Shown here one piece after another: positions 4,792-15,520 of a stretch of 39,644 nt of DNA; the first letter of the stretch is position 1; each line of letters begins with the position of its first letter. Both the position numbers and the translations under genes were made by a program. The notes beneath the pieces were generated by a model. The model did no database searches. It worked only from the letters and a program-made list of their open reading frames with translations, and had not been told where the DNA came from. Origin of the DNA: a virus; the IMG/VR virus record IMGVR_UViG_3300024520_007517. One strand, given 5' to 3'.

Positions 4792-4809
4792 GCAACAGCC
4801 GAGTTGTCA
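4792..4809. promoter_or_regulatory. operator-like inverted repeat CAAC-N6-GTTG
   Basis: ggcaacagccgagttgtcag. Confidence 0.35.
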
Positions 4810-4894
4810 GTTCCACGAGCCCGTGCGTAACCCCAGAGCAATGACAACTCAACCCCTCCCTACAGGCTTTGGCGCGAGACCGGCTGAAAAACAT

Positions 4895-4910
4895 GCAACA
4901 CCTAGTTGCC
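4895..4910. promoter_or_regulatory. operator-like inverted repeat GCAAC-N5-GTTGCC
   Basis: gcaacacctagttgcc. Confidence 0.4.
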
Positions 4911-4927
4911 CACATTCATAGCTAAAC

Positions 4928-4968
4928 ATGACCTCCCCCTATGGGGAGGAGGAGTGAGGGAGGTCATG
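4928..4968. terminator. 11-bp perfect inverted repeat hairpin after CDS 4988..5145
   Basis: catgacctccc-N19-gggaggtcatg. Confidence 0.5.
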
Positions 4969-4987
4969 TTCGCCAGGGCCGGGGCCT

Positions 4988-5145
4988 CTAGCTGTCGTCG
5001 CTGAAGCGGGCGATCAAGCGGCCGATGGTTGCCGAGTAGGCTCGGGCGGCGAGGCCGGGGATGAAGGTGGCGGCGATACCGGCGGCGAAGCCGGTGGCCA
5101 GGGTGCGGACGGTGGTCTTCGTGGCGACGCGGATGATTGCGGACA
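4988..5145 (-). CDS. small hydrophobic membrane protein (52 aa)
   Basis: ATG with AGGAGT SD inside track ORF 4988..5506; Ala/Gly-rich TM segment; terminator hairpin downstream. Confidence 0.55.
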
Positions 5146-5220
5146 TGGTGTGTACTCCTGGAGCCCTGGGGTTACGCCGGGCCAGCGTTGATTGAACGAA
5201 GGTGCCCCGAGGGGCGGGAA

Positions 5221-5553
5221 CTAGAGGGAGCGCAGGACCTTCAGGTCCTGGGGGGCCGTGACCCCGCAGTACGTGGCGACCTGGCGCCACGTCTTCGCTC
5301 CGATGTAGGCGGGCAGCCATATCCAGCTGCCCGCCAGGGCAACGATGACGATCACTGCCAGGGCCGCCCAGTCCTCTTCCGCCTTGGCGGCGGAGTAGAG
5401 GGAGATGCCGTAGTCCACAATGGACTCGACCTTCCCGCCGACCCAGACAACCAGGGCGGCGCTGAGGGCGAAGAAGGCAGCCTTGAGGCCCTGGATGAGG
5501 GGCCACATGGTCCAGGTCACGATTCTGGCAGAGAACTTGGCGAAGAGGTTCAT
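5221..5553 (-). CDS. membrane protein (110 aa, about 3 TM)
   Basis: track ORF; GGGATAAG leader 53 nt upstream. Confidence 0.65.
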   Translation of the reverse strand: MNLFAKFSARIVTWTMWPLIQGLKAAFFALSAALVVWVGGKVESIVDYGISLYSAAKAEEDWAALAVIVIVALAGSWIWLPAYIGAKTWRQVATYCGVTAPQDLKVLRSL

Positions 5554-5607
5554 GCTGGTCTCCAGGGAGGGGGTGATGGAGGTTGATCCTCCTTGGGTGA
5601 CATACTA

Positions 5608-5615
5608 CTTATCCC
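5608..5615 (-). promoter_or_regulatory. GGGATAAG motif, 53 nt upstream of CDS 5221..5553
   Basis: motif core on minus strand. Confidence 0.5.
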
Positions 5616-5786
5616 CCCTTTCGGCCCCAGTTCTGCATTCCGTGAGGCCGTATATGTCTGCAGCTACTTGAAAACCATTCGAGGGGCCCTTCATGGGTTG
5701 ACTGGGTACCCACTGCGATTTCAGATGTTTGCTGTCAACTCCCTGTTGCTATCTACGCCCATATATCCCGGCCCCAAATGTGGAGT

Positions 5787-5806
5787 GACAACCACTTGTT
5801 GCTAAG
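5787..5806. promoter_or_regulatory. operator-like IR GACAAC-N5-GTTGCTAAG
   Basis: gacaaccacttgttgctaag. Confidence 0.45.
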
Positions 5807-5866
5807 GATCATGGGCACGGGGTCCGGGCACAGGCGTCAGCCATATACCCGGACCCCGTGCGGTGT

Positions 5867-5888
5867 GACAACTAGGAGTTGCCTACCG
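5867..5888. promoter_or_regulatory. operator-like IR GACAAC-N5-GTTGCC
   Basis: gacaactaggagttgcctac. Confidence 0.45.
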
Positions 5889-6053
5889 AGTACGGCCCCG
5901 CCCCCGTTGGTACTCGGAGATCGGGTAGTCCTCCCTCAGAGCCTCCAGCGAAGCCATCGACGCCGAGAGCTTCTTCCGCACCTTGTCGTCGCGCTCGCTG
6001 TCGAGGGCCGCCTTCAGGGTGCGGATCATCCTGTCCAGTTCCTCTTGCAGCAT
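5883..6053 (-). CDS. small coiled-coil protein (56 aa)
   Basis: internal ATG of track ORF 5883..6170; high GC3; start overlaps upstream stop (TAATG). Confidence 0.45.
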   Translation of the reverse strand: MLQEELDRMIRTLKAALDSERDDKVRKKLSASMASLEALREDYPISEYQRGRGRTR

Positions 6054-6403
6054 TAGGCCGCCCCCGTGTGGTAGCCGTTCAGGGCCGCGTAGGCCATGTA
6101 GGCCTGACCCAACGGGGTGAGGCCTGAGCCGTAGCGCTTCCCGCGGCGGACAGCGCGCTCGAGCATGCACCCGAGCGCCAGGCTGAACGTCGTGTCTGAG
6201 CGGATGGTCTGGTCGACCGTGTAGGCCTCGCCCTTGTAGGCGAACTCGTCTCCGTCCTGGAGTCCCAGTAGGAGGCGGACGGGAACGTGGATGTCTCCGT
6301 CGACGTCATCCTGGGTGAGGGTCAGGCAGTGCTGGGTGGGGATGGGGCAGCGGGCGATGTCGAAGGACGTCGGGTTCTCAACGATGGCGATGCGGCTGGT
6401 CAT
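6053..6403 (-). CDS. hypothetical protein (116 aa)
   Basis: track ORF; AGGAGAT SD; operator IR plus GGCATAAG motif upstream. Confidence 0.7.
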   Translation of the reverse strand: MTSRIAIVENPTSFDIARCPIPTQHCLTLTQDDVDGDIHVPVRLLLGLQDGDEFAYKGEAYTVDQTIRSDTTFSLALGCMLERAVRRGKRYGSGLTPLGQAYMAYAALNGYHTGAA

Positions 6404-6431
6404 GATGATCTCCTGGTTTGGGTACAGATCT

Positions 6432-6439
6432 CTTATGCC
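6432..6439 (-). promoter_or_regulatory. GGCATAAG variant motif, 29 nt upstream of CDS 6053..6403, operator IR immediately upstream
   Basis: motif core on minus strand. Confidence 0.5.
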
Positions 6440-6442
6440 GCA

Positions 6443-6465
6443 GCAACAACTGCGAGTTGCCTAAG
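6443..6465. promoter_or_regulatory. operator-like IR GCAACAAC-N5-GTTGCCTAAG abutting promoter motif of CDS 6053..6403
   Basis: gcaacaactgcgagttgcctaag. Confidence 0.5.
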
Positions 6466-6472
6466 AACGATC

Positions 6473-6499
6473 GGGACCGAGGCGCAAAGCCTCGGTCCC
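6473..6499 (-). terminator. perfect 11-bp stem hairpin after CDS 6519..6743
   Basis: gggaccgaggc-gcaaa-gcctcggtccc. Confidence 0.55.
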
Positions 6500-6508
6500 G
6501 GGTTCGTG

Positions 6509-6530
6509 GAGACAACTGCTAGTTGTCCTC
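6509..6530. promoter_or_regulatory. operator-like IR GAGACAAC-N5-GTTGTCCTC at 3' end of CDS 6519..6743
   Basis: gagacaactgctagttgtcctc. Confidence 0.4.
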
Positions 6531-6743
6531 CCCGAGAACGATGGAGAGGCCGATACCGCCCTCTCCACGTGACCAATTCCGGGACACGACGACCAGCTCC
6601 GGGACGTGGCCCTTGTGGCTCAGATCCACCCCGTCCCAGAAGGGGGGATAGATGATGTCTCCCACCATGGGAGCGACGGGAAACTCCAGAGAGAGTCCCT
6701 CGCCGAGCCTGTCGGTGTTGATCCAGACGTCGACCTGAATCAT
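6519..6743 (-). CDS. hypothetical protein (74 aa)
   Basis: track ORF; ATGA overlap with upstream gene. Confidence 0.55.
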   Translation of the reverse strand: MIQVDVWINTDRLGEGLSLEFPVAPMVGDIIYPPFWDGVDLSHKGHVPELVVVSRNWSRGEGGIGLSIVLGEDN

Positions 6744-7201
6744 CACTCCCCCTCGCTGATGTCGACGCCGATGAGCGCGAAGGTGTCCCGGGCCACCAGC
6801 TCGTTGTACCGGGCCGACGCCTCTGGGAAGGCCCAGGCCACAGCCGCCTGGATGACGACGTGTCCGAGACCCCAGAGGGACATCATCAGGATGGCCATGA
6901 GCCAGCCGTCAACCTGCGCCAGGGCGAAGAGCGGGGCCACGAGCACTCCGGTGCCGCCGAGGATCCCGAGCTTGCCGTTCTTGAAGACCTTGGCGGCGAG
7001 CATCATCATCACGGGGATCGTGTAGCTCCACACGAGCACGGTGGCGTGGGCGAGGATGGGGTCGACCCCGTAGAGGCCGACGAGCAGGAGGACGCCGATG
7101 GCCATGTCCCAGAGGGAGATGCCGAGGCCCGCGCCCTTGCGGGTGGACTCCATGGCTGCGAATCCGGCGATGAGAGAGATCAGGTAGACGGTGATGATCA
7201 T
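6743..7201 (-). CDS. integral membrane protein (152 aa, multi-TM)
   Basis: track ORF; AGGAGAA SD; operator IR plus GGCATAAG leader upstream. Confidence 0.7.
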   Translation of the reverse strand: MIITVYLISLIAGFAAMESTRKGAGLGISLWDMAIGVLLLVGLYGVDPILAHATVLVWSYTIPVMMMLAAKVFKNGKLGILGGTGVLVAPLFALAQVDGWLMAILMMSLWGLGHVVIQAAVAWAFPEASARYNELVARDTFALIGVDISEGE

Positions 7202-7233
7202 GAGAAATTCTCCTAGGTTGGTGGTCTATTCTC

Positions 7234-7241
7234 CTTATGCC
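7234..7241 (-). promoter_or_regulatory. GGCATAAG variant motif, 35 nt upstream of CDS 6743..7201, operator IR immediately upstream
   Basis: motif core on minus strand. Confidence 0.5.
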
Positions 7242-7245
7242 GCCC

Positions 7246-7267
7246 TAACAACTGTGAGTTGCTAAAC
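7246..7267. promoter_or_regulatory. operator-like IR AACAAC-N5-GTTGCTAAAC abutting promoter motif of CDS 6743..7201
   Basis: taacaactgtgagttgctaaac. Confidence 0.5.
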
Positions 7268-7336
7268 AACCATGGGAGCGGGGCTCGAACCCGCGACCTC
7301 CTCTTGCGAGGCGCTCTACCAACTGAGCTATCCCTG
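7266..7336 (-). tRNA. tRNA-like element or degenerate tRNA (pseudo-tRNA or attP-type remnant)
   Basis: minus-strand read TCAGGGA-TA-GCTCAGTTGGTAGAGC...GCGGGTTCGAGCCCCGC-TCCCATG: canonical D-arm and T-arm, but anticodon region is too short (18 nt) and acceptor stem pairs only 4 of 7; a promoter/operator cassette sits directly upstream. Confidence 0.4.
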
Positions 7337-7344
7337 ACACTTCT

Positions 7345-7352
7345 CTTATGCC
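7345..7352 (-). promoter_or_regulatory. GGCATAAGAGAAGTG motif directly upstream of tRNA-like element, operator IR immediately upstream
   Basis: motif core on minus strand. Confidence 0.5.
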
Positions 7353-7355
7353 CCG

Positions 7356-7377
7356 TAGCAACCGTGAGTTGCCTAAG
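7356..7377. promoter_or_regulatory. operator-like IR GCAAC-N5-GTTGCCTAAG abutting promoter motif of tRNA-like element
   Basis: tagcaaccgtgagttgcctaag. Confidence 0.5.
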
Positions 7378-7382
7378 CAAGC

Positions 7383-7404
7383 GTCGCCCCCAGAAGGGGG
7401 ACGG
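7383..7404 (-). terminator. GC hairpin after CDS 7429..8604
   Basis: gtcgccccc-agaa-gggggacgg. Confidence 0.5.
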
Positions 7405-7428
7405 CGCGTTGCTCACGACCGAGTTGGA

Positions 7429-8604
7429 CTACAGGACGCCGAGGAGCTCCAGGAGCTCCATGGTCTCGGGACTGTGCGCGACCTTGATTCCCTTCGACAG
7501 ACCAGCCTTGACTCCTCGTTGGAACTCGTCGCCCTCGATGTGCCCGGCGCCGTTGCTCGACGCCTGCTCCAACCGCTTCACCTCCGCGTTCAAGCGCTGC
7601 ACCTCGGCGCTCAGCGCCATCTCGTCCGATGTCCGAGAGGTCTTCAGACGCTCGTTCTCCGACTTCAGACCCCGGCAGCTCTCATCCCGAGCCGCGATGT
7701 CTGCTCGCTGCACGCGCACCGCCCTCCGGTGCTCCGTGATCTCCTCCCGCAGGGAGAGGATGCTCACGTCGCGCTCCTGGAGCTGCTTCCTCAGGCCCTC
7801 GACCACCGTCAGGTGGCCCGCCAACGGCGACTCCGAGGTCTGCAGGGCTTCGAGCTGCTTCCGCAGGTCGTAGACCTCCTCCTCGGCAGCCCGACCGCTC
7901 TCCAGCAGCTGGTCCCGTCCGGCGTTGGCCAGACGGGCGGCCTCCTTGTGGGCGGCGATCTCCTTCTGCATGTTGGCGGCCTTGGCCTCGGCCTCCTCCT
8001 CCAAGGCACGGGAGTAGTCCCGAGCGTCTGCCAGCTCCTTCTGCGCCGTCTTCACCTTGCCCTGCAGCTCGGTGATCTCCTCGGTGAAGACGAGGGTGTC
8101 CGCCTCTTCCTTCTCTCGGGCGATGACCTGCTCGGTCTCTCGGTGGCGCCGGTGAGCAGCTGCGACGGCCTTGCCACTGACGGGCAGGCCGTCGGGGCTG
8201 GGAGACAGCGCGATGGCGATCTGGTCGTAGGTCTTGCCGGCAGCACGCATCGAGATGATCTTCTGGATGCGATCGGGCCCCCACTGGGTGCTCTGTCGCC
8301 TCGGGATGTTGCCGATGCCGGCCTCGGACAAGGCCTTCCTCGTCGCCGTCATGCTCTTGCTGACGTAGACGAGCGGGAGGCTCTTCTTCTTGGCCGTGCG
8401 CTCGGCCAGGTTCTTGAGAGGCGTGTTGGCCACGTCCCACATGAAGAGGATGACGTCGGCGCCCTTGGTCGACGTCGTCTTCGGGGAGCGCCGCCCCATA
8501 GACGTGACGTTGTGGGTGATGTCGACTCCGAGCCCTTTGAGCTTGGCGACGTACGAGCTGTTGTTGCGGGGGAAGCCGCCGATCAAAACTGCAGTAGTAC
8601 CCAT
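7429..8604 (-). CDS. hypothetical protein (391 aa): N-terminal alpha/beta domain, HTH-like segment (GKTYDQIAIAL), long C-terminal coiled coil
   Basis: internal ATG (MGTTAVLIGG...) of track ORF 7429..8898 with AGGAGAAA SD; operator-like IR (GCAATAACCGGTTGTCA) plus GGGATAAG leader upstream. Confidence 0.65.
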   Translation of the reverse strand: MGTTAVLIGGFPRNNSSYVAKLKGLGVDITHNVTSMGRRSPKTTSTKGADVILFMWDVANTPLKNLAERTAKKKSLPLVYVSKSMTATRKALSEAGIGNIPRRQSTQWGPDRIQKIISMRAAGKTYDQIAIALSPSPDGLPVSGKAVAAAHRRHRETEQVIAREKEEADTLVFTEEITELQGKVKTAQKELADARDYSRALEEEAEAKAANMQKEIAAHKEAARLANAGRDQLLESGRAAEEEVYDLRKQLEALQTSESPLAGHLTVVEGLRKQLQERDVSILSLREEITEHRRAVRVQRADIAARDESCRGLKSENERLKTSRTSDEMALSAEVQRLNAEVKRLEQASSNGAGHIEGDEFQRGVKAGLSKGIKVAHSPETMELLELLGVL

Positions 8605-8634
8605 TGAATTTCTCCTGGTAGTGGGTTCATCTGC

Positions 8635-8642
8635 CTTATCCC
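8635..8642 (-). promoter_or_regulatory. GGGATAAG motif, 35 nt upstream of CDS 7429..8604, operator-like IR upstream
   Basis: motif core on minus strand. Confidence 0.5.
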
Positions 8643-8646
8643 CCAA

Positions 8647-8668
8647 TGACAACCGGTTATTGCCTAAG
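8647..8668. promoter_or_regulatory. operator-like IR (degenerate half-site) GACAAC-N5-ATTGCCTAAG abutting promoter motif of CDS 7429..8604
   Basis: tgacaaccggttattgcctaag. Confidence 0.4.
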
Positions 8669-8673
8669 GGAGA

Positions 8674-8691
8674 TGCCCCCATGACGGGGCA
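8674..8691 (-). terminator. hairpin after CDS 8705..8920
   Basis: tgcccc-catgac-ggggca. Confidence 0.4.
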
Positions 8692-8704
8692 GAGCTCTGC
8701 TTGA

Positions 8705-8920
8705 CTACAGCCCCAGCTCCATGAGCTCGGACTCCTCCAGCTCGCGCTGGAGGAGTCCGACCCACATGTCTCGGACCTCTGGAGGCATGTCGGCCTCCTG
8801 CGCCTGGAACTCGCGGATGAGTCGCGCCCGTCGACGCTGGTTAGCTCGAGCCGGCCGGAGCAGGTCGAGCAAGAGGTACATGCCGGTCGCGCCGGCAATC
8901 CAGAGGAAGAGGTACAGCAT
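8705..8920 (-). CDS. small membrane-anchored protein (71 aa)
   Basis: track ORF; AAGGAGAT SD; hairpin downstream. Confidence 0.65.
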   Translation of the reverse strand: MLYLFLWIAGATGMYLLLDLLRPARANQRRRARLIREFQAQEADMPPEVRDMWVGLLQRELEESELMELGL

Positions 8921-8933
8921 TTGGGATCTCCTT

Positions 8934-9323
8934 TCAGAGAGTGAAGAGGGTGGCCATCACCTGGTTCCAGGTGATGTCAGGTTGGACGATGATGAGCTGG
9001 CGGCCCAGCTCGATGAGGCCGCAGAGGGCCACGTCGAACGCCTTCAGCTCGTCGGCCGAGACCGAGGCCTGGAGGTTGACGCCCTTGCCCTCGTAGAACG
9101 CCTTGCAGGCGGGCTGGAAGCTGAACGTCTCGCAGAAGAAGGCGTCCATCATCGAGCGGTAGCCGTCGACGTCGATCTCCATGTCGGTGAAGAGGAACCT
9201 CTGCACTGCCTTTCGGCGGAGCATCCGTTCGGCGGCGGGGAAGACGGTCTCGCTGACGCCTCCGCCGACGGAGAGACGCTGCTCAAGACGGACCTCGCAC
9301 TGCATGTGCATTCCGAGATTCAT
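8934..9323 (-). CDS. hypothetical protein (129 aa)
   Basis: track ORF; GAGGAGA SD. Confidence 0.65.
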   Translation of the reverse strand: MNLGMHMQCEVRLEQRLSVGGGVSETVFPAAERMLRRKAVQRFLFTDMEIDVDGYRSMMDAFFCETFSFQPACKAFYEGKGVNLQASVSADELKAFDVALCGLIELGRQLIIVQPDITWNQVMATLFTL

Positions 9324-9336
9324 GGCGGGTCTCCTC

Positions 9337-9447
9337 TCAGAGCTCGATGGGGGTGTCCAGGGCGGTCATGACCTGGAAGAAGTTCTTGGCCACGGCCACG
9401 GCCGCTCCGAGGGCGGCAGCAGCGACACAGGTGAGGAATACGCGCAT
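9337..9447 (-). CDS. small single-TM peptide (36 aa; MRVFLTCVAAAALGAAVAVAKNFF...)
   Basis: not in track (<60 aa); ATG with AGGAGAT SD; consensus GGGATAAGAGAAGTGAACCCAAAC leader 34 nt upstream. Confidence 0.5.
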   Translation of the reverse strand: MRVFLTCVAAAALGAAVAVAKNFFQVMTALDTPIEL

Positions 9448-9476
9448 GTGAAATCTCCTAGTTTGGGTTCACTTCT

Positions 9477-9484
9477 CTTATCCC
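9477..9484 (-). promoter_or_regulatory. GGGATAAGAGAAGTGAACCCAAAC motif, 34 nt upstream of CDS 9337..9447
   Basis: motif core on minus strand. Confidence 0.5.
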
Positions 9485-9572
9485 CCCTAGAAGGCCGTCG
9501 ATTTCTAAGAGTAAGAGGCGGGGCCCAGGTGCTTGTGCACCCGGACCCCGTGTCTACCTGACCATCTGCCTG

Positions 9573-9602
9573 GGTAGCGGGACCGCCGGCGGTCCCGCTA
9601 CC
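9573..9602. terminator. 30-bp perfect palindrome (bidirectional terminator candidate) after CDS 9618..10118
   Basis: ggtagcgggaccgcc/ggcggtcccgctacc. Confidence 0.6.
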
Positions 9603-9617
9603 AGATCAGGTTCTCAC

Positions 9618-10450: not shown

Positions 10451-10481
10451 GGGAAGTTCTCCAGGTTTGTGGTTCACTTCT

Positions 10482-10489
10482 CTTATCCC
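10482..10489 (-). promoter_or_regulatory. GGGATAAGAGAAGTGAACCACAAAC motif, 36 nt upstream of CDS 10331..10450
   Basis: motif core on minus strand. Confidence 0.5.
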
Positions 10490-10511
10490 CCCACTCAGAT
10501 CCCCAGTTGCA

Positions 10512-10676
10512 TCACCTCTGTCCCCTCCGCCAGGGGTTCCGAGGAGCCAGCTTGTGGTGGAGCACGACGACGACGTAGACCGCCGGGTAGACCAAGGTGG
10601 CCACCACGTCTCCGATGAGGAAGGCGGCCTCGCTGGCCCGGCGCTTCTCCTCCCTCTTGGGGTCAATCTTCGTCAT
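10512..10676 (-). CDS. small membrane protein (54 aa)
   Basis: internal ATG (MTKIDPKREEKRR...) of track ORF 10512..10733 with GGAGAGAC SD. Confidence 0.45.
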   Translation of the reverse strand: MTKIDPKREEKRRASEAAFLIGDVVATLVYPAVYVVVVLHHKLAPRNPWRRGQR

Positions 10677-10770
10677 GTCTCTCCAGTGGTAAGGCAGAGG
10701 TCGAACCGGCGGATCCGCATCATGAGTGTGCACTGTCCGTCCTTTCTTGTCCGTCCTCTAGCGCATTGAA

Positions 10771-10778
10771 CTTATCCC
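10771..10778 (-). promoter_or_regulatory. GGGATAAG motif, ~95 nt upstream of CDS 10512..10676
   Basis: motif core on minus strand; leader contains a 16-codon uORF ending ATGA at the gene start. Confidence 0.4.
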
Positions 10779-10895
10779 AGGTGATACCCCCGGTTTCACA
10801 GGCTAAATTGATGCGGTCCTTTCGGTCCGCGACTAGGGTCACGACTCCCTATAAAACAGCTGTCTGTGGTTTCAGTCACTTTACTCATCCCGCGA

Positions 10896-10925
10896 GGCGC
10901 CCCTGGATTTCACCCCAGGGGCGCC
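10896..10925 (-). terminator. 11-bp stem hairpin after CDS 10942..11115
   Basis: ggcgcccctgg-atttcacc-ccaggggcgcc. Confidence 0.55.
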
Positions 10926-10941
10926 CCTGTGGGCGAGTGTC

Positions 10942-11115
10942 TCAGCCTCGCCCATCCCCGTGCACGTGGGTCGGGAGCGTGGCGTCATGGAGCCAGTTCC
11001 CGAACCGTTGGTGTCCGGTGAAGATGTAGACGAGCTCGCCCAGTGGATGAGCCACGAGGTTGTGCGCCGTCCATTGGAGACGAGGGGGAAGACGATCGAT
11101 GAGGCGGATCAGCAT
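10942..11115 (-). CDS. hypothetical small protein (57 aa; MLIRLIDRLPPRLQWTAHNLVAHPLGELVYIF...)
   Basis: not in track; ATG with GGAGAA SD 31 nt downstream of GGGGTAAG leader; GC-rich hairpin terminator after stop. Confidence 0.45.
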   Translation of the reverse strand: MLIRLIDRLPPRLQWTAHNLVAHPLGELVYIFTGHQRFGNWLHDATLPTHVHGDGRG

Positions 11116-11149
11116 GGTCAGTTCTCCAGTTATATGAGTGACTGATCTA

Positions 11150-11157
11150 CTTACCCC
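11150..11157 (-). promoter_or_regulatory. GGGGTAAG variant motif, 31 nt upstream of CDS 10942..11115
   Basis: motif core on minus strand. Confidence 0.4.
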
Positions 11158-11176
11158 GCCGGAACCACACCGAATT

Positions 11177-11866
11177 TCATCCGACCGTGATCCACTTCTC
11201 CTCGTAGTCCACGACCGCCTTCGCCTCGCCCAGCAACTTCGCCCAGGCGAGCTGGAGCAGCTCCAGCTGGAAGAACTCGTCCTCGTGACCGTTGTGGGTC
11301 ACGATCAAGGCCTTGACCGCCCCCTCGCCCAGGAGGTCACGGGGGGACGCGTACCGAGAGTTGCCGCCGCCGAGGTTCCGCGTGAAGCGGTGGCTGGAGA
11401 CGGTGGGCTTCGGGCCGTTGCTGGCCAGGATCGTCACCAGAACGTGGGTGTACCCGTGCTCCGTCAGGTAGGCCCGCTCGATGTCCGTCGTCTGCGGGTC
11501 GCCGATGTAGGCCTCGACCGTGTACACCACGACACGTACTTCGGCGGGAGCCAGGTCGAGGTCGCTGAGGTCGCTGCGGTCGCGCACCACCACGGCCTCC
11601 CCGCGGTGGACGCGGGCCTGGAACATCTCGTCGTCGAGGACGGGCGGCATCGGCGCGTCCCCGCAGTAGACGAGATGGCAGGCCTCTTCCGGCAGGTCGA
11701 TGACACCGACGCCGGAAGCGGGGAAGTCGAACTCGCTGGCAGCGGTGTGCACGAAACCGACGATGCGGTCCTCGTTGTCTTCGGGGAGGGGGCGGACGAT
11801 GGTGCCGATGGCGGAGCCGTCGAGCTGGCTACCGGCGATGGCGTGGATGAAGAGCTTGGTGGTCAT
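11177..11866 (-). CDS. hypothetical protein (229 aa)
   Basis: track ORF; AGGAGATACC SD; leader motif 44 nt upstream. Confidence 0.7.
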   Translation of the reverse strand: MTTKLFIHAIAGSQLDGSAIGTIVRPLPEDNEDRIVGFVHTAASEFDFPASGVGVIDLPEEACHLVYCGDAPMPPVLDDEMFQARVHRGEAVVVRDRSDLSDLDLAPAEVRVVVYTVEAYIGDPQTTDIERAYLTEHGYTHVLVTILASNGPKPTVSSHRFTRNLGGGNSRYASPRDLLGEGAVKALIVTHNGHEDEFFQLELLQLAWAKLLGEAKAVVDYEEKWITVG

Positions 11867-11908
11867 GGGTATCTCCTGAGTCGGGGAAGTGTGTTGTCCG
11901 ACACCTCA

Positions 11909-11916
11909 CTTATCCC
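11909..11916 (-). promoter_or_regulatory. GGGATAAGTGAGGTGTCGGACA motif, 44 nt upstream of CDS 11177..11866
   Basis: motif core on minus strand. Confidence 0.5.
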
Positions 11917-11994
11917 TTCCCAGGACCTCCAAACGACAAAGGGCGCTCCCCCATCCCGGGGAGCGCCCTCGCGTCGCAGTCCTGTGGTAGTCGG

Positions 11995-12480
11995 TCAGGC
12001 GGCCTGCTTCTTCGCCTTGCTCGCCTTGGCCTTCTTCGCGCGGCATCCGCGGCAGTGGCTCTGCGAGGCCGTGCGAATCTTCTCGCCGTCCTTGGTCTTC
12101 GTCTTCATCCGGCGGTAGCCGAACATCTCGGCGATGTCGCCCGTCTCCTTGCAGCTCGGGCAGGTCTTCTCGCCGGTCGGGCCGCCCTCGGGGGCCGACT
12201 TCTTCTTGGCGGGAGCCTTCTTCGCGGGAGCCTTCTTCTTGGCCGGAGCCTTCTTCTTGGCCTTCGGCTTCTCGGCCGTGCCGCTCTCCAGCTTGGTCAG
12301 CCGGGTCTGCGCGGGCTTGACCACGAGGACGCGGGTGTCGCGAGGCTCGATGCCTTCGGCCTCGTTGCCCACGAGGGCACGGAGGACGTCGGCGCTCTCC
12401 TCCTTGCGGACGGCGTTGCGGGCATCGACGCCGCGCATGTCCAAGATCTCGGTGACGCGCTCTTCGGTGGTCTTGCTCAT
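11995..12480 (-). CDS. histone-like DNA-binding protein: Lys/Ala/Pro (PAKK) repeat tail plus C-terminal CxxC..CxxC zinc ribbon (161 aa)
   Basis: internal ATG (MSKTTEERVTEIL...) of track ORF 11995..12537 with GGAG SD; AKKKAPAKKKAPAKKAPAKKK repeat. Confidence 0.6.
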   Translation of the reverse strand: MSKTTEERVTEILDMRGVDARNAVRKEESADVLRALVGNEAEGIEPRDTRVLVVKPAQTRLTKLESGTAEKPKAKKKAPAKKKAPAKKAPAKKKSAPEGGPTGEKTCPSCKETGDIAEMFGYRRMKTKTKDGEKIRTASQSHCRGCRAKKAKASKAKKQAA

Positions 12481-12555
12481 GTTCTGGCTCCAGTTAGGTG
12501 ATCTGCGGATCTTGACACCACGGATCGTGGGGCGCAACCCTAAGGATCAATTTCT

Positions 12556-12579
12556 GGCGGCCCCCCGAAGGGGACCGCC
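12556..12579 (-). terminator. hairpin after CDS 12591..13058
   Basis: ggcggcccc-ccgaa-ggggaccgcc. Confidence 0.45.
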
Positions 12580-12590
12580 GAGTGAGTGGT

Positions 12591-13058
12591 TTACAGGGAG
12601 ACGATCAGGCCCTGGCCGGCGCCGCCCTCGAAGGCGGGTCCGACCGAGGAGAACGGGGATCCGTCCTTGTTGCAGAGGGACAGGTGGAACACCCGCTCCT
12701 CGTCAACCAGCGGCAGGCCCATCCCCGCGAGGAGCTCGCCCCGCCAGAAGTGCCAGGCCTCCTGGTCCTGGAGCCGGACGGCCCAGGACCACTTCTCCCC
12801 GTGCTTCTGCAGCTCCGCCTCCTCCAGGAGGGAGACGTCCGGAGGCGCCGGCAGCTCGCCCTCCCGACCGATCCAGGTCTTGAGGACCGGCCGGTGGGGC
12901 TTGAGCGAGCCGAAGCTGGCGACCGTGACGTGCAGCCGTTCCAGTGGGAGAGGCACCGCCTCAGGGTACTGCCCCGAGATCTCGACCTGGAGCTTCCCCG
13001 CCGTGGCCAGGGCGGCCTCGGACGGGGTGACGCTGATGAAGGTCTTGGTGACGTGCAT
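12591..13058 (-). CDS. 2H phosphoesterase superfamily protein (LigT/2'-5' RNA ligase/cyclic phosphodiesterase-like, 155 aa)
   Basis: internal ATG (MHVTKTF...) of track ORF 12591..13148 with GGGGAGAAG SD; two H-x-T/S-x motifs (LHVTVA and FHLSLC) spaced as in LigT. Confidence 0.5.
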   Translation of the reverse strand: MHVTKTFISVTPSEAALATAGKLQVEISGQYPEAVPLPLERLHVTVASFGSLKPHRPVLKTWIGREGELPAPPDVSLLEEAELQKHGEKWSWAVRLQDQEAWHFWRGELLAGMGLPLVDEERVFHLSLCNKDGSPFSSVGPAFEGGAGQGLIVSL

Positions 13059-13333
13059 CAGGCTTCTCCCCAGGCGACGCCCTCCATGAAGGCCTCCTTG
13101 TGGCTCTTCTCGTCGATGCTCTCGATGCCCGTGATGGGGTCGGTCCACATCTTCATCTCCCGCTCCTTGAGGATCTCCGCCTCGACCTCGTACGCTGCGC
13201 GCATGCGAGCCTTGAGCGTCTCTTTCTCGCCCGTCTTACGGGCCTTAACTTTGGCTGGGGTGAACTGGTACGCCACCCACGCAGCCATGGCCGCGTAGAT
13301 GGTGAAGAGGATGACGCGGGCGAGTGCCTTCAT
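13058..13333 (-). CDS. membrane-anchored protein (91 aa)
   Basis: track ORF; AGGAGATCC SD; leader motif 32 nt upstream. Confidence 0.65.
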   Translation of the reverse strand: MKALARVILFTIYAAMAAWVAYQFTPAKVKARKTGEKETLKARMRAAYEVEAEILKEREMKMWTDPITGIESIDEKSHKEAFMEGVAWGEA

Positions 13334-13362
13334 GTGGATCTCCTGGTAGGTGGTCTATCTCT

Positions 13363-13370
13363 CTTATCCC
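13363..13370 (-). promoter_or_regulatory. GGGATAAGAGAGATAGACCACC motif, 32 nt upstream of CDS 13058..13333
   Basis: motif core on minus strand; paralogous to copy at 7234. Confidence 0.5.
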
Positions 13371-13375
13371 TCAGA

Positions 13376-13801
13376 TCAGTGCCCGTTCTCATGGGCGAAC
13401 ACCTCCGCCTCCTCGTGGGTCAGGATGACGCCGAAGTAGTCGGTACGGACGGTGGTGGTCTCTACGACCGTTTTTCCGTCCACGCACCAAGTGTGCTGGT
13501 GCCAGATTCCGTCCTCGCTGAGGGCGTAGCCGGTGACGATGGATAGTTCTTCGTCGGCCAGCCACTCAGCTACGGAGTTAGCGTGGCACTGACTTCGTGC
13601 CCCTTCTCGCAGCTGAAGAGACTCGGGCCTAGATGCCTCACCCCTCTCCAGTAGTATTGGCAGATCCTCCTCTGAGAAGGGAAAGCAGACTTCCTCCCCG
13701 CCGGCGGAGAGCAGTCGCTCCCTCAGCTCGGTCATTCGTGGTTGGCGCTCGACTGCCATGTCGATCAGACGCTGCAGGTGCTTCTTTTGCCGTGGTGTCA
13801 T
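13376..13801 (-). CDS. hypothetical protein (141 aa)
   Basis: track ORF; GGGATAAG leader upstream. Confidence 0.6.
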   Translation of the reverse strand: MTPRQKKHLQRLIDMAVERQPRMTELRERLLSAGGEEVCFPFSEEDLPILLERGEASRPESLQLREGARSQCHANSVAEWLADEELSIVTGYALSEDGIWHQHTWCVDGKTVVETTTVRTDYFGVILTHEEAEVFAHENGH

Positions 13802-13833
13802 CGTGAGCTCTTGTCGGCCATAGGTTCATCTGG

Positions 13834-13841
13834 CTTATCCC
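13834..13841 (-). promoter_or_regulatory. GGGATAAGCCAGATGAACC motif upstream of CDS 13376..13801
   Basis: motif core on minus strand. Confidence 0.5.
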
Positions 13842-13874
13842 GCGCAGTTGACCGTTCTGTACTAAGCGAGAGCC

Positions 13875-13900
13875 CTCCCCCGTGCATCGGTGCGGGGGAG
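13875..13900 (-). terminator. 8-bp stem hairpin after CDS 13912..14235
   Basis: ctcccccg-tgcatcggtg-cgggggag. Confidence 0.5.
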
Positions 13901-13911
13901 AACTCTGCTTG

Positions 13912-14235
13912 TCACGTGGCGACCAGGCGCCTCCGGGTCCAGAAGGATCCGGGGCCCCGGGTCTTCTGGACAGGAGACGCTACTTCCGTCGGAATGCCGT
14001 CCGTTACCAGCTCCGGTGGAGCGGTAGGGGTAGTCGGAAGGGTCGCACGCGCGATCACCGCCCGTTGAAGGTGCACGGCAAGCCGCATCTTCAACAGGAT
14101 CTTCTTGCGCCGCTGCCGGCGTCGTCGCTTCATCTTCTTCGTAGACCCGGCTCGTACTCCGGGTCCTCCAGCTCTCAGCAGGCTCTTCTGGCTTCCCGGT
14201 CGGGGATGCCCTTGGTGGTGGTGGCGGTGAATCAC
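13912..14235 (-). CDS. hypothetical basic Arg/Lys-rich protein (107 aa)
   Basis: track ORF; GC3 about 85% in this frame versus about 25% for competing frame 13862..14314; GTG start 5 nt after upstream stop; hairpin terminator just downstream. Confidence 0.45.
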   Translation of the reverse strand: MIHRHHHQGHPRPGSQKSLLRAGGPGVRAGSTKKMKRRRRQRRKKILLKMRLAVHLQRAVIARATLPTTPTAPPELVTDGIPTEVASPVQKTRGPGSFWTRRRLVAT

Positions 14236-14240
14236 TCTCT

Positions 14241-14552
14241 CTACTTTCTCTCAGCGGTTCCGAAGAAGGAGGCCCAACGGGCTTTCTTCTTCGCTTCGTG
14301 GACACCCCGCTCAATGATCTCTTGCTCTGATTCCCCGAGAGTCTCTCGGAGAGCCTTGTTCCCTAGAAGAGCGAGCTCCTCTGGCAAGAAGATCCCTGTG
14401 CGGCCGTCATCCACTTTGTAGACGATCCCCTCGTTATCACGCCTGGCTCGGTGGCTCACGGAAGCTCCGACTTGGGCACTGAAGAGGGGGGTGAGGAGGG
14501 GGATCAGGAAGGCGGTCACAGCCCCGAATCCCCAGATCAGTGCGTACAGCAT
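14241..14552 (-). CDS. membrane-anchored protein (103 aa)
   Basis: internal ATG (MLYALIWGFG...) of track ORF 14241..14573 with GGAGG SD. Confidence 0.6.
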   Translation of the reverse strand: MLYALIWGFGAVTAFLIPLLTPLFSAQVGASVSHRARRDNEGIVYKVDDGRTGIFLPEELALLGNKALRETLGESEQEIIERGVHEAKKKARWASFFGTAERK

Positions 14553-14573
14553 CGGTGTGCCTCCTCGCGGCAA

Positions 14574-14605
14574 GCCGCGGCCCCCCGTGAAGGGAGACCG
14601 CGGCC
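14574..14605 (-). terminator. hairpin after CDS 14624..15421
   Basis: gccgcgg-N18-ccgcggc. Confidence 0.4.
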
Positions 14606-14623
14606 GTACCAGGAGAGGCAGCC

Positions 14624-15421
14624 CTACTTGGGGCTGCTCTTGGAGCGGCGACTAAAGAACAGGATCGTTCCTTCGGTTACCGCCACCAGGCCCGCGCCGA
14701 CCGTGACCACCACGGCGCGGGATTCCGGGAGGAAGCCGATCTTGCTCGCCAAGAACTTGTAGCCGAAGCCGAAGGCCAGGCCTTCGACGGCGGAGCGGAG
14801 CGGGTCGAAGGGCGCGCGGCCCATGATGCGGCTGCCGTCGAGGTAGACCTGACCCCAGGGGGTCGTGGCCTGCTTGTCGGCGACGGCCTCCTGGGCGGCA
14901 ATGCGCGCCTGCTCGATGACGCTCTGGGTCTCCTCCTGCATGGCGCTGAGGATCACCAGCTCCAGCCCCGAGGCGAGAGCGGAGACCTCCTCTTGGTCCT
15001 CTACCTTCATGGACAGGACGTACTCCCGGACGATGGCTCCCAGCGCCTCCGGGCTCACGGCGTTGGACAAGTCGACCTTGGTGGCCACCTTGCCGTCGGA
15101 GACGAGCTGGTTGAACGTGGAGAGCTCGGCCTCCATCTTCTTCCAGGTCTTCTGGCCCAGGATCTGGGTCAGGCGCTCGTCGGCCACGCCCATCAAGGCC
15201 TTGCTGGCGTGCTCGGCAGCGGCGCCGGCGACGAACTCGCCGACCATCTTCGCGACCTTCGGGTTCAGGTCCTCGGTGCGCTCGAGGCCAGCGATGATCA
15301 GGGCCTCCAGAACCAAGCTCTTGTCGTCATCGGTCAGGTCATCGAACGCGACGGCGGTCATGCCACCATCCTCTGGCAGAAGGATGGCTTCGGGGGTCTT
15401 CTTCTTCGCGGAATCAGTCAC
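14624..15421 (-). CDS. hypothetical protein with C-terminal hydrophobic segment (265 aa)
   Basis: track ORF; GTG start with AGGAGAGAC SD; leader motif 57 nt upstream; hairpin downstream. Confidence 0.65.
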   Translation of the reverse strand: MTDSAKKKTPEAILLPEDGGMTAVAFDDLTDDDKSLVLEALIIAGLERTEDLNPKVAKMVGEFVAGAAAEHASKALMGVADERLTQILGQKTWKKMEAELSTFNQLVSDGKVATKVDLSNAVSPEALGAIVREYVLSMKVEDQEEVSALASGLELVILSAMQEETQSVIEQARIAAQEAVADKQATTPWGQVYLDGSRIMGRAPFDPLRSAVEGLAFGFGYKFLASKIGFLPESRAVVVTVGAGLVAVTEGTILFFSRRSKSSPK

Positions 15422-15474
15422 GGTGTCTCTCCTAGAAACATGGAAATGGGCATGTGCCCGGGGGTAGTACTTCC

Positions 15475-15482
15475 CTTATCCC
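15475..15482 (-). promoter_or_regulatory. GGGATAAG motif, 57 nt upstream of CDS 14624..15421 (in divergent region)
   Basis: motif core on minus strand. Confidence 0.5.
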
Positions 15483-15502
15483 CGCCAACCCCCGTTTTTT
15501 CA

Positions 15503-15520
15503 GGCAACCAAATAGTTGCC
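15503..15520. promoter_or_regulatory. operator-like IR GGCAAC-N6-GTTGCC in divergent intergenic region
   Basis: ggcaaccaaatagttgcc. Confidence 0.4.

Follow-up and report, generated by a model that had tools for sequence, protein, structure and literature searches.

Palindromes and promoter cassettes in the left arm

The DNA analysed here, referred to as the window, is a 39,644-nucleotide fragment of an uncultivated large phage. Sequence from several independent samples was assembled near-identically (99.92-100%), and the repeats described below are therefore not assembly artefacts. The nearest relatives are phage contigs of 114-405 kb, and the source phage looks like a jumbo phage. The left arm of the contig is a string of small orphan genes with one cassette each; a cassette begins with a terminator hairpin (...CTTAG tail), followed by a -35-like slot, the -10-like box GG[G/C]ATAAG and a predicted start site about 7 nt later, with a conserved leader, Shine-Dalgarno sequence and ATG closing the series. 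Interspersed with these elements is a palindrome, RCAACT-N3-AGTTGY, which occurs about 14 times, nearly always between genes, and comprises two RCAACT half-sites with centres 9-10 bp, i.e., about one helical turn, apart.

In the window, the exact core, CAAC-N5-GTTG, has 12 occurrences, whereas shuffled sequences predict 0.37 and none of them reached 12, and the form with a 6-nt spacer gave three matches (0.40 expected), two of them intergenic, namely the copies at 4792 and 15503. The ten copies listed in the initial annotation are indeed all present, with the corrections that those at 4792 and 15503 have the 6-nt spacer and that at 8647 has one mismatch (CAACCGGTTATTG). Its count of "at least 10" was exceeded, and two good intergenic copies (4088-4100 and 5736-5748) had been missed; the CTAAG extension that it included is real in about six copies, but lies outside the palindrome and comes from the terminator hairpins upstream, whose tail it forms. 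The matrix scan that it had suggested was run with a half-site matrix, and 11 intergenic N5-type sites (scores 15.9-23.3), two N6-type sites (20.1-21.8) and one coding site (17574) were set apart from background by a clean score gap; the best score across 30 shuffles was 17.5. An equal frequency in coding sequence, named at the outset as an argument against operators, was not observed: of the 12 exact copies, 9 lie between genes or on a stop codon in a window that is about 12.5% non-coding (binomial P 1e-6), and 13 of the 14 high-scoring matrix sites are intergenic. Eleven of the 14 sites are packed into one 4.6-kb block (4.09-8.66 kb).

Half of the 14 palindromes, which carry no strand assignment, do not adjoin a promoter box. 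The copy at 4792..4807 (GGCAACAGCCGAGTTGTC, 6-nt spacer; score 21.8) lies in a 340-bp non-coding stretch upstream of promoter P4654, and that at 4895..4909 (TGCAACACCTAGTTGCC; 18.7) has the terminator of gene 4988-5147 immediately before it and a T-run after it. Two others, 53 bp apart, are near GGGATATA, a variant -10-like box: the copy at 5735..5749 (GTCAACTCCCTGTTGCT; 18.6) flanks this box, and that at 5788..5802 (18.8), with CTTAG ahead, is 19 nt upstream of it on the minus strand. The copy at 5868..5882 (23.0) directly follows the stop codon of gene 5883-6056 and precedes a minus-strand hairpin with a 13-bp stem (5816..5860, read from the sequence), which separates it from the palindrome at 5788. 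Similarly, the best copy (GACAACTGCTAGTTGTC, 6512..6526; 23.3) extends over the stop codon of gene 6519-6746, directly ahead of a minus-strand, intrinsic-terminator-like hairpin (6472..6500; tail ending in CTTAG), beyond which lies the palindrome at 6446. The copy reported earlier in the divergent region is present at 15503..15520 (GGCAACCAAATAGTTGCC, 6-nt spacer; 20.1), at a distance of 22 nt on the upstream side of the P15482 box. The plus strand has a single sigma-70-like match (15516-15544), and its -35 (TTGCCA) is overlapped by this copy. These seven copies have unrelated flanks and only the palindrome in common with the others, which indicates that selection acts on the palindrome itself. 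The coding copy (17574..17590; 20.5), within ORF 17502-17984 and 120 bp downstream of a gene for an XRE-family protein, is possibly a 14th member and possibly a chance match.

A promoter family and the register of the palindrome

The GG[G/C]ATAAG box was found 18 times against 0.76 expected, always on the minus strand, which is the strand of the downstream gene. Every box has a terminator before it and, 26-63 nt after it, either the start of a minus-strand gene or a tRNA-like RNA; the boxes precede a Shine-Dalgarno sequence and ATG, and T13/G14 are conserved. The box behaves as a -10 element with a predicted transcription start about 7 nt later; its GATAAG differs from the canonical sigma-70 -10, and "-35" is used here as a positional label. 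The GGCATAAG/GGGATAAG motif of the initial annotation is real, but the 18-copy promoter family to which it belongs, a minority of which has the palindrome, had been overlooked.

In five of the 18 promoters, all on the minus strand, a palindrome occupies the -35 slot and spacer. P4081 (box 4074..4081, GGGATAAG; gene 3742-4047) has the copy at 4087..4101 (GGCAACTGGATGTTGTC on the plus strand; score 21.8), the GTTG end of which is 6 nt ahead of the 8-mer. The next three boxes are all GGCATAAG: P6439 (6432..6439; gene 6053-6403) with the copy at 6446..6460 (22.7), P7241 (7234..7241; gene 6743-7201) with that at 7248..7262 (22.3), and P7352 (7345..7352; tRNA-like RNA) with that at 7358..7372 (19.7). 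Finally, P8642 (8635..8642, GGGATAAG; gene 7429-8604 for a 391-aa protein) carries a degenerate copy at 8649..8663 with one core mismatch (15.9), just as the initial annotation had noted. Its other four abutting cassettes included those of 6053, 6743 and the tRNA-like RNA, correctly, but also, as probable, the 5221 cassette, the nearest palindrome of which is about 120 bp upstream; the fifth abutting cassette is that of 3742-4047. P15482 (15475..15482, minus strand, GGGATAAG), which serves the left arm's first gene, has its N6 palindrome farther upstream. The remaining 12 promoters of the class, all minus-strand GGGATAAG boxes, are without a full palindrome (679, 4647, 5608, 9477, 10166, 10281, 10482, 10771, 11909, 13363, 13834 and 34911); all except the one at 34911 lie in the minus-strand span 679..13841, which also encloses the palindrome-bearing boxes at 4074, 6432, 7234, 7345 and 8635. 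An unrelated 180.8-kb phage contig, IMGVR_UViG_3300009008_000005, has the same GGGATAAG-N5-TGAACCC promoter and leader without the palindrome. Since both these 12 promoters and those of the contig lack it, the palindrome is best viewed as an add-on regulatory site.

The GTTG end lies 6-7 nt ahead of the 8-mer in all five cases (4081, 6439, 7241, 7352 and 8642), a register for which sets of 18 randomly placed anchors give 0.07 cases on average. The palindrome is thus located at about -35 to -21, where it covers the -35 slot together with the first, upstream two-thirds of the spacer. Given its placement exactly on the -35 side of five phage-specific promoters, a two-part regulator protein most likely docks on it.

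It could be argued that the left arm of the palindrome is simply a -35 element with a fortuitous partner, and indeed RCAACT or a TGCAAC-like sequence is in the -35 slot of 9 of about 22 promoters, in four of them as a lone RCAACT half-site without a full palindrome (among these the palindrome-less boxes at 679, 10166 and 10482 of the 679..13841 span, with half-sites at 686, 10173 and 10489). These lone half-sites in the same slot suggest that the left arm may be a good -35 element; nonetheless, 14 full palindromes cannot be chance, and half of them are away from a promoter box. A sigma-54-like -24/-12 element was also considered, as GGCAAC-N-TTGC superficially resembles TGGCAC-N5-TTGC, but the GG-to-GC spacing, read from the sequence, is 2 nt over the strict sigma-54 spacing. 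As for a restriction or modification target, phages usually deplete such targets rather than enrich them between genes. Taken together, these readings are the least probable of those considered here, and very improbable in absolute terms.

Sequence conservation, hairpins and cassette duplication

If the copies folded as RNA in read-through transcripts, they could act in processing, in transcript stability or as an aid to termination. Some copies fold at -6 to -8 kcal/mol (z-scores as low as -5), two precede terminators (5868 and 6512), that at 4895 is followed by a T-run, and the G-T arm combinations would pair as G-U in the sense strand. The predicted hairpins are weak overall, however (-2.1 to -8.3 kcal/mol), with 4 of 10 copies at just -2.1 to -3.6 kcal/mol, and compensatory variation is absent, the same letters recurring instead; A-C arm combinations are also present (4087 and 4792). 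Moreover, the promoter-embedded copies are placed between the terminator tail and the inferred start site, and hence outside the main, mature transcripts. The outer R position assorts freely between the arms, and the CAAC/GTTG core is the same in differing flanks. The conserved feature of the palindrome is its sequence and not its hairpin strength, and a role as an RNA hairpin is improbable, slightly more so than the duplication of cassettes considered below.

The three best promoter-embedded copies have GGCATAAG in common, in 33-43-nt cassettes that are 79-85% identical (repeat-search family D6; the 85% figure was read from the sequence), and part of the repetition is therefore due to common descent. 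The palindrome could accordingly be imagined as a passenger, or a recombination point, of mobile terminator-promoter modules that duplicate and shuffle orphan genes, in the manner of the promoter-early-stem-loop (PeSL) cassettes of T4-type phages. An unbiased repeat search returned promoter/leader families of 19-46 nt, including a 43-nt unit of box plus palindrome in three copies; all genes are orphans, each in its own cassette; and P7352 and P7241 are near-duplicates on either side of the tRNA-like gene. The latter RNA (7274..7334, minus strand, from P7352), in which a GCAA tetraloop replaces the anticodon loop, is thus flanked by two palindrome-bearing promoter cassettes; its tRNA-like position 1 is 7337, 1 nt past the conserved T13-G14 of P7352. 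The unrelated flanks of the seven copies that share the palindrome only argue against such a by-product, as does the fact that most promoter cassettes lack the palindrome, and we regard it as rather improbable.

A putative operator family and its regulator

The explanation that we favour, and consider reasonably likely, is that the palindromes are operators for a phage-encoded, sequence-specific dimeric regulator; its binding, sign and identity are inferred here from the DNA sequence. The regulator is probably a repressor, a choice over activation that follows from the position of the sites: a dimer on about -35 to -21 of the five promoters would exclude RNA polymerase and so repress by occlusion. 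Of the dimeric repressor architecture proposed in the initial annotation, the operator-like palindromes, their intergenic location and their fixed promoter position were thus upheld, with repression itself argued from position only. The extra copies at the 3' ends of upstream genes before terminators (5868 and 6512), and those in two long non-coding stretches, would form paired sites 53-110 bp apart that may allow cooperative binding or a block to read-through. The 6-nt-spacer copy in the divergent region may control the plus-strand promoter leading to the operon that contains the XRE gene.

An unlikely, though not negligible, alternative is that the sites bind a dimeric activator or dual-function regulator in a temporal-class switch, comparable to lambda CII at -35 or a MerR-type protein in the spacer, which would turn on the promoter subset with GGCAAC or AGCAAC in the -35 slot and the GGCATAAG variant of the -10. 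All three of the best promoter-embedded copies indeed have this deviant box, with the first base of the -35-like TGCAAC replaced, and temporal control is usual for jumbo-phage gene blocks; it also agrees with this that no lysogeny gene, integrase included, was recognised in the approximately 52 kb recovered. However, a site at about -35 to -21 takes in the -35 slot itself, as is usual for occlusion, and cassette duplication can account for the shared GGCATAAG. The core promoter scores are alike, and no lower, with the palindrome than without it, so that the promoters do not look activator-dependent, and copies at gene 3' ends and in leaders have no obvious activator role.

With respect to the putative repressor, three candidate binders had been named. 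The XRE-family protein (17210..17455, plus strand; start codon uncertain) is the only one with a confirmed HTH (Pfam E 2.8e-10; PHROGs), and its gene belongs to the operon downstream of the divergent-region site, 120 bp from site 17574. The 391-aa protein (7429..8604, minus strand), encoded inside the palindrome cluster, has a DUF2325-like N-terminus, a possible HTH and a long coiled coil; its marginal HTH_23 match (E 0.15) and unusable structure model (pLDDT 48) make it a weak candidate. The 62-aa protein (31110..31298, plus strand) has a ribbon-helix-helix-like sequence pattern and is an unconfirmed candidate, with no Pfam match and a sole PHROG match to a family of unknown function. No candidate binder gene with convincing DNA-binding homology adjoins the main cluster.

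Comparison with known phage systems

If these assignments are correct, the palindrome and its regulator would constitute a switch of a well-known type, though the virus is unfamiliar. The CI-Cro operators of lambda, 434 and P22, whose regulators are dimeric HTH repressors of the XRE family, resemble the present sites in being short palindromes, present in several copies, whose half-sites are separated by about one helical turn and which overlap core promoter elements, with one site in a divergent control region and an XRE-family HTH gene present. In contrast to them, the promoter here departs from the sigma-70 type (-10 box GATAAG), the sites are distributed over at least five separate small promoters and gene 3' ends instead of tandem OR/OL arrays, the regulator gene is not beside the main cluster, and this probable jumbo phage shows no lysogeny module in the approximately 52 kb seen. 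Accordingly, the likeness to immunity operators proposed in the initial annotation is not supported.

Its analogy with stoperators fared no better. In Cluster A mycobacteriophages, the stoperators of the L5 gp71-type repressor are 13-bp asymmetric, monomer-bound sites, more than 20 of which are found across the genome in an orientation that tracks transcription (PMC9283540). The present sites are like them in that many copies of one short site are found in short intergenic spaces, at promoters and between genes, where they could block both initiation and read-through; they differ in being symmetric palindromes concentrated (11 of 14) in one 4.6-kb block.

The SAS of Cluster K mycobacteriophages (GGGATAGGAGCCC) is asymmetric, starts with GGGATA, and occurs in 11-19 copies, all oriented alike, upstream of non-structural genes; it includes the ribosome-binding site and is 3-7 bp from the start codon. 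Ahead of about half of the copies is an inverted repeat (ESAS), thought to be protein-binding, with 17-bp arms and a variable 4-13-bp spacer (PMC3203893). The 18 boxes described here, 5-6 of them preceded by a palindrome, are reminiscent of this arrangement, but are 26-63 nt upstream and distinct from the Shine-Dalgarno sequence; one copy precedes an RNA gene, and the palindrome arms are 6-7 bp with a fixed spacer. In the PeSL cassettes of T4-type phages, each small orphan gene is enclosed between a conserved promoter and a stem-loop or terminator, and cassettes are duplicated around inserted genes (PMC2839356). The present arm resembles them in both respects, a likeness confined to the promoter/terminator cassettes and not extending to the palindrome, and the promoter consensus differs.

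Lastly, the temperate phage phiC31 (41 kb), the repressor gene of which is known, has conserved inverted repeats (CIRs) that are bound by its repressor at many intergenic positions of the early region, together with non-canonical early promoters and terminators. As in phiC31, a conserved inverted repeat recurs here at many intergenic positions, in an unrelated sequence.

Genomic setting of the window

The window is a whole metagenomic contig of 39,644 bp with a G+C content of 63%. Overlapping pieces of it were found in the assemblies of several other samples at 99.92-100% identity, and variation from assembly to assembly is essentially nil. When the window was compared with phage and plasmid collections by megablast and blastn, no DNA-level relative was retrieved; among 5.8 billion proteins, the 391-aa protein encoded at 7429-8604 (-) matched itself and no other homologue. 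No match was obtained in two metagenome scans with the 265-aa and 313-aa proteins, with a chimeric multi-protein homology query, or with the XRE protein as query in IMG/VR.

An 885-aa product encoded at 36734-39391 (-) carries a major-vault-protein (MVP) shoulder and repeat domains. Relatives with 35-41% identity occur in phage contigs of 114-405 kb, including the 'huge phage' records LR756500-3, while the best relative, a 188-kb contig (ERZ27249009 k141_382418), encodes a version that is 69% identical and is syntenic with the window at 23.7-39.6 kb. Since the relatives of the MVP-like protein sit on contigs of such length, the window most likely represents part of a jumbo-phage genome. Homologues of this protein number in the thousands in huge-phage contigs and in metagenome-assembled genomes of Myxococcota.

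The genes are arranged in a minus-strand block of small orphans with no Pfam family (208-15421), a plus-strand block of tightly packed genes (15853-34661), and a second minus-strand block (34658-39391). The plus-strand block encodes the XRE helix-turn-helix (HTH) protein, VanY, three glycosyltransferases, an acetyltransferase, a deacetylase and methyltransferases. Within it lies a sugar-modification cluster at 24430-30963 (+), comprising three family-2 glycosyltransferases, a hexapeptide acyltransferase, a PIG-L deacetylase and two methyltransferases; the cluster is partly missing from the 188-kb relative, which has no counterpart of window 24.6-28.9 kb.

A minus-strand promoter family

The 8-mer GG[G/C]ATAAG occurs 18 times against 0.76 expected, at 679-15482 and 34911-34918, and all copies are on the minus strand; four further copies lie at 8203-12212 (+) of L147, the left extension of the same genome. 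The boxes are situated 26-63 nt upstream of minus-strand gene starts, apart from one that precedes a tRNA-like RNA instead and an exceptional copy at 10281-10288, which has no nearby start codon and precedes the next box by about 100 nt. Each box is followed by a conserved leader, agaagTGAACCacaAACCAGGAGA...ATG, in which the AGGAG is separate from the box. Many boxes come directly after a G+C-rich hairpin with a T-containing tail that ends in CTTAG; CTTAG was considered as part of the operator or of a -35 element and was dropped, as it is the terminator tail.

When the promoters were aligned on the 8-mer (positions 0-7), T13 was kept in 16 of 18 and G14 in 15 of 18, and a weak TG(C/A)AA or RCAACT element appeared at -22 to -16 of the alignment. 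Position 1 of the tRNA-like RNA is 7337, one base past G14 of its promoter. Together, T13/G14 and this RNA end fit a transcription start at about position 14; GATAAG would then lie at -12 to -7 and the upstream element would be the -35 slot, a spacer of 18 nt separating the two. Sigma-70-type factors require a T at -7, and GATAAG is without that T. On the 188-kb relative, a weak precomputed Sigma70_r3 match marks a gene, truncated at the end of the locus, as at most a putative sigma-factor gene.

A promoter matrix scan of the window added two weaker copies, at 36651 (before a ligase-like gene) and 10891, and found no copy on the plus strand. The 19-kb plus-strand block would therefore belong to another transcription class, which implies, on motif distribution, that the window contains two such classes. 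A scan of IMG/VR for box plus leader, in which the other matches were mostly single and due to chance, recovered IMGVR_UViG_3300009008_000005 (180.8 kb), where the promoter and leader, GGGATAAG-N5-TGAACCC...GGAGG-ATG, also follow terminators (loci L140, L105 and L158). The promoter type thus extends beyond this phage, and its non-canonical elements (-10 GATAAG, -35 TGCAAC-like) are common to at least two phage contigs. This points to a non-canonical promoter specificity that the two phages would have in common; as the two contigs have almost no protein similarity in the loci compared, it could, more speculatively, reflect a dedicated sigma factor or polymerase specificity.

Some side observations concern this promoter family. 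The leaders of P10173 (10118-10173) and P11916 (11866-11916), promoters named by box coordinate and both on the minus strand, are 88% identical over 25 nt and have in common a 5' hairpin, GTCGG...CCGAC, that is absent from other leaders. A minus-strand GGTATAAG box at 33751-33758 lies in an intergenic gap between plus-strand genes, and GGGTATAAG is found in the corresponding gap of the 188-kb relative (locus L024, roughly 16400-16440); the box may be a conserved antisense promoter.

A recurrent palindrome clustered in intergenic DNA

The initial annotation had listed ten operator-like copies of an inverted repeat with the core CAAC-N5-GTTG. The recurrence is real and has strong statistics, as the window contains 12 exact copies of this core against 0.37 expected and 12 were reached in no shuffle, but the details of the list needed correction: the copy at 8647 has one mismatch, those at 4793 and 15505 have a 6-nt spacer, and two good copies, at 4088 and 5736, had been overlooked. 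The version with a 6-nt spacer has three matches in the window (0.40 expected), two of them being the listed copies just named, while the 4-nt version has none. In its full form, RCAACT-N3-AGTTGY, the palindrome is two-fold symmetric, with arms of 6-7 bp, a constant 3-nt spacer (4 nt in two copies), and half-site centers 9 bp apart (10 bp in two copies).

A matrix was then built from 20 half-sites (consensus R-R-C-A-A-C-T), a position-weight-matrix scan having been proposed beforehand as a check, and it set the intergenic family apart in the window. Eleven intergenic N5-type sites scored 15.9-23.3 bits, two N6-type sites 20.1 and 21.8 bits, and one coding site, 17574, 20.5 bits; next in rank were a coding match at 2916 (13.4 bits) and others at or below 11.7, and the best score in 30 shuffles was 17.5. 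The matrix separates the palindrome family from the background. Equal frequency in coding sequence, which had been named as a ground for rejecting the operator reading, was not what was found: of the 12 exact copies, 9 lie between genes or on a stop codon, although only about 12.5% of the window is non-coding (P = 1e-6). Moreover, 11 of the 14 sites are confined to 4087-8663, and the 9.8 kb of the same genome past the left end, with its four more promoters, holds a single palindrome, which is intergenic.

Several sites lie away from a core promoter. Palindromes 5868 and 6512 are each at the 3' end of the upstream gene, ahead of its terminator, and each is paired with a promoter copy 66-80 bp downstream. 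Palindromes 4792 and 4895 occupy the non-coding stretch 4650-4990, and palindromes 5735 and 5788, 53 bp apart and flanking a GGGATATA box, the non-coding stretch 5560-5880; these stretches are 320-340 bp long with no convincing ORF. Each holds two to three palindromes, and 5560-5880 additionally contains GGGATATA/GGGTATAT boxes and a hairpin that is strong; such stretches may encode regulated small RNAs or long leaders. Finally, palindrome 15503-15520 is located in the divergent region, where its right arm contains the -35 TTGCCA of TTGCCA-17-CATACT, the sole sigma-70-like plus-strand match, such matches overall being at chance frequency.

Beyond this genome, the palindrome was absent from the part of the 188-kb relative that matches window 23.7-39.6 kb, and hence the coding match at 38123 in the window is not conserved there. 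A search of IMG/VR for the operator plus CTTAG gave one chance match, within coding sequence. Across 185,579 species genomes, palindrome plus box gave 24 single matches, about the number estimated by chance, none with clustered copies.

The palindrome is an addition to a subset of promoters

In P4081, P6439, P7241, P7352 and P8642, the right arm of the palindrome ends 6-7 nt before the 8-mer, whereas random anchors gave a mean of 0.07 such cases per 18. In these five promoters the palindrome lies at about -35 to -21 of the probable start, and its distal arm, GGCAACT, occupies the -35 slot. Overall, a palindrome is found upstream of 5-6 of the 18 boxes. The initial annotation, in placing operator-like repeats on the -35 side of some promoters, was right in kind and wrong or unproven in particulars.

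The location of the distal arm raises the question of whether the repeat is a mere -35 element or some other motif. A lone RCAACT is indeed present in the -35 slot of three promoters that have no palindrome, and of one in the left extension. Nonetheless, 12 promoters of the same class do without the palindrome, and no such palindrome was found in the compared loci of the 181-kb phage with the same promoter type. Core promoters score alike with and without it. We regard a mere -35 element, or some other motif, as very improbable. Because of the 12 promoters and the 181-kb phage, the palindrome is, by its distribution, an addition to a subset of promoters, separate from the promoter proper.

Known motifs were also considered. 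In the sigma-54 consensus (TGGCAC-N5-TTGC), the spacing between GG at -24 and GC at -12 does not vary. A sigma-54 promoter was rejected: GG and GC are 14 nt apart in GGCAAC-N6-TTGC, where the consensus has 12, and the right arm is GTTGT in most copies. LexA, CIRCE and IdeR boxes differ from the palindrome in core or spacing. A restriction target was likewise dropped.

Probable recognition as DNA rather than RNA

An inverted repeat may also act as an RNA hairpin, and hairpins of -2.1 to -8.3 kcal/mol are indeed predicted for the palindromes. However, 4 of 10 are at or above -3.6 kcal/mol, whereas nearby terminator stems consist of 12-13 G+C-rich pairs. The outer purine of the arms assorts freely (GC/AC, AC/GC, GC/GC and AC/AC are all present), which shows that pairing is not maintained there. 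Copies embedded in promoters come after the terminator tail and before the probable start, and would thus be outside the main transcripts. In addition, identical letters recur in unrelated flanks. Taken together, these properties favor recognition of double-stranded DNA by a dimer with reading heads one helical turn apart, and leave the RNA hairpin a slim chance.

The recurrence in unrelated flanks also bears on the view that the palindromes are scars of cassette duplication. Promoter-plus-terminator modules are present in the window and are partly duplicated, as this view would have it; with the same letters recurring in flanks that are unrelated, we consider it improbable, if somewhat less so than the hairpin.

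Proposed mechanism and candidate regulators

We consider it probable that the palindrome is a protein-binding operator exerting negative control. In the proposed mechanism, a dimeric phage-encoded regulator would bind RCAACT-N3-AGTTGY and, at five promoters, would compete with the polymerase for the -35 slot, while the upstream partner sites could serve either cooperative binding or as a roadblock to read-through. The 4.09-8.66 kb block, which encodes four predicted membrane proteins, several orphans, the 391-aa protein and the tRNA-like RNA, would be switched as one unit, and the site in the divergent region would couple this switch to the plus-strand operon with the XRE gene. The main rival is an activator or dual regulator, which we judge unlikely.

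A broader reading is that palindrome and GG[G/C]ATAAG box constitute a private transcription program of an uncultivated phage clade of about 180-190 kb, in which this phage would have evolved an operator of its own by mirroring the -35 element, to gate the membrane-protein genes and the tRNA-like RNA. We offer it tentatively, as an idea with a small chance of being right.

Three proteins had been named as candidate binders. The XRE protein is the only one among the candidates with a confirmed HTH (Pfam, 2.8e-10; PHROG transcriptional regulators), and its gene (17210-17455) is 1.7 kb from site 15503 and 120 bp upstream of 17574, the sole high-scoring site in coding sequence. The distance to the main cluster is 8.5 kb or more. 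The 391-aa protein is encoded inside the palindrome cluster and its own promoter has a degenerate copy; it gave a sub-threshold DUF2325 match, HTH_23 at E 0.15 and a coiled coil, with no convincing HTH. AlphaFold on its N-terminal 176 residues produced an unusable model (pLDDT 48.5), and a PDB sequence search retrieved nothing relevant. The 62-aa 'RHH' protein (31110-31298) has a plausible sequence pattern, and its sole match was a PHROG family of unknown function (E 0.0014), with no supporting match in Pfam or PDB. Just beyond the left end of the window, a 214-aa protein (L147 8686-9330) showed a weak winged-helix match (E 0.008).

It is to be noted that, at 17097-17455 (+), the XRE frame is without a good start codon and overlaps a 58-aa zinc-ribbon ORF in the -1 frame (17097-17273, +; Zn_ribbon_Top1, E 1e-5). 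This could be explained by fusion through a frameshift, by a GTG start at 17210 or by an indel in the assembly.

Comparison with known regulatory systems

The functionally closest elements are the classical operators of dimeric HTH repressors in phages (lambda/XRE type), with which the palindromes share a length of about 14-17 bp, half-sites about one helical turn apart, and, in the five promoters, overlap with core promoter elements. The likeness to stoperators that had been suggested did not hold. Cluster A stoperators are 13-bp asymmetric sites for a monomeric two-domain repressor, with more than 20 sites genome-wide whose orientation follows transcription (PMC9283540). In contrast, the sites here are two-fold symmetric, so that orientation is undefined, and they are concentrated in 4.09-8.66 kb, with only one extra site in the additional sequence. 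Similarly, a role in immunity or lysogeny was unsupported: no integrase, excisionase, partition or other lysogeny function was recognized by Pfam in 65 window ORFs scanned directly, in the left extension of about 10 kb (precomputed annotation plus direct scans of three ORFs), or in one ORF of the right extension.

The most similar layout is that of the SAS/ESAS elements of Cluster K mycobacteriophages, in which a GGGATA... motif in one orientation precedes non-structural genes and an inverted repeat precedes some of them. The SAS, 13 bp long, includes the ribosome-binding site and precedes the start codon by 3-7 bp, and ESAS are inverted repeats, imperfect and 17 bp long, whose spacer varies from 4 to 13 bp, before about half of the SAS copies (PMC3203893). 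The box described here differs in its greater distance from the start codon (26-63 nt), the separate AGGAG and the copy before an RNA gene, and the palindrome in its shorter arms (6-7 bp), fixed spacer and occurrence at 5-6 of 18 boxes. The terminator-promoter modules around orphan genes also recall the PeSL cassettes of T4-type phages, where orphan genes are bordered by a conserved early promoter and a stem-loop, at which related genomes have recombined (PMC2839356). The palindrome adds a member to a class of elements already known, from a large phage that is uncharacterized in other respects.

Almost nothing is known of how uncultivated large phages control transcription, and the main value of the contig is a readable regulatory grammar with an unusual promoter class. 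This grammar is complete, i.e., terminator, -35 slot, unusual -10 box, leader and optional operator, and indicates which orphan genes would be co-regulated. A second large phage contig, apparently unrelated, is already picked out by the promoter model, and the window also points to a tRNA-like RNA under regulation. Should the palindromes be operators, the 4.09-8.66-kb block would be a module with a switch of its own; the short palindromes are testable DNA probes for finding the regulator.

The tRNA-like RNA and a basic protein

The tRNA-like RNA at 7274-7334 (-) scored 40.7 bits against the Rfam tRNA model and was not detected by ARAGORN. Its D and T arms are intact, only four acceptor pairs are matched, and a GCAA tetraloop caps the anticodon stem, which means that it has no anticodon. 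It has its own palindrome-bearing promoter, with its 5' end at the probable transcription start. In the broader, tentative reading given above, such an RNA would perhaps be a decoy against host enzymes or defenses that target tRNA.

Elsewhere in the window, a 161-aa protein encoded at 11995-12480 (-) carries KKAPAKK repeats, a basic region resembling histone-H1/HU tails, followed by CxxC...CxxC, and may be a DNA-coating or nucleoid protein.
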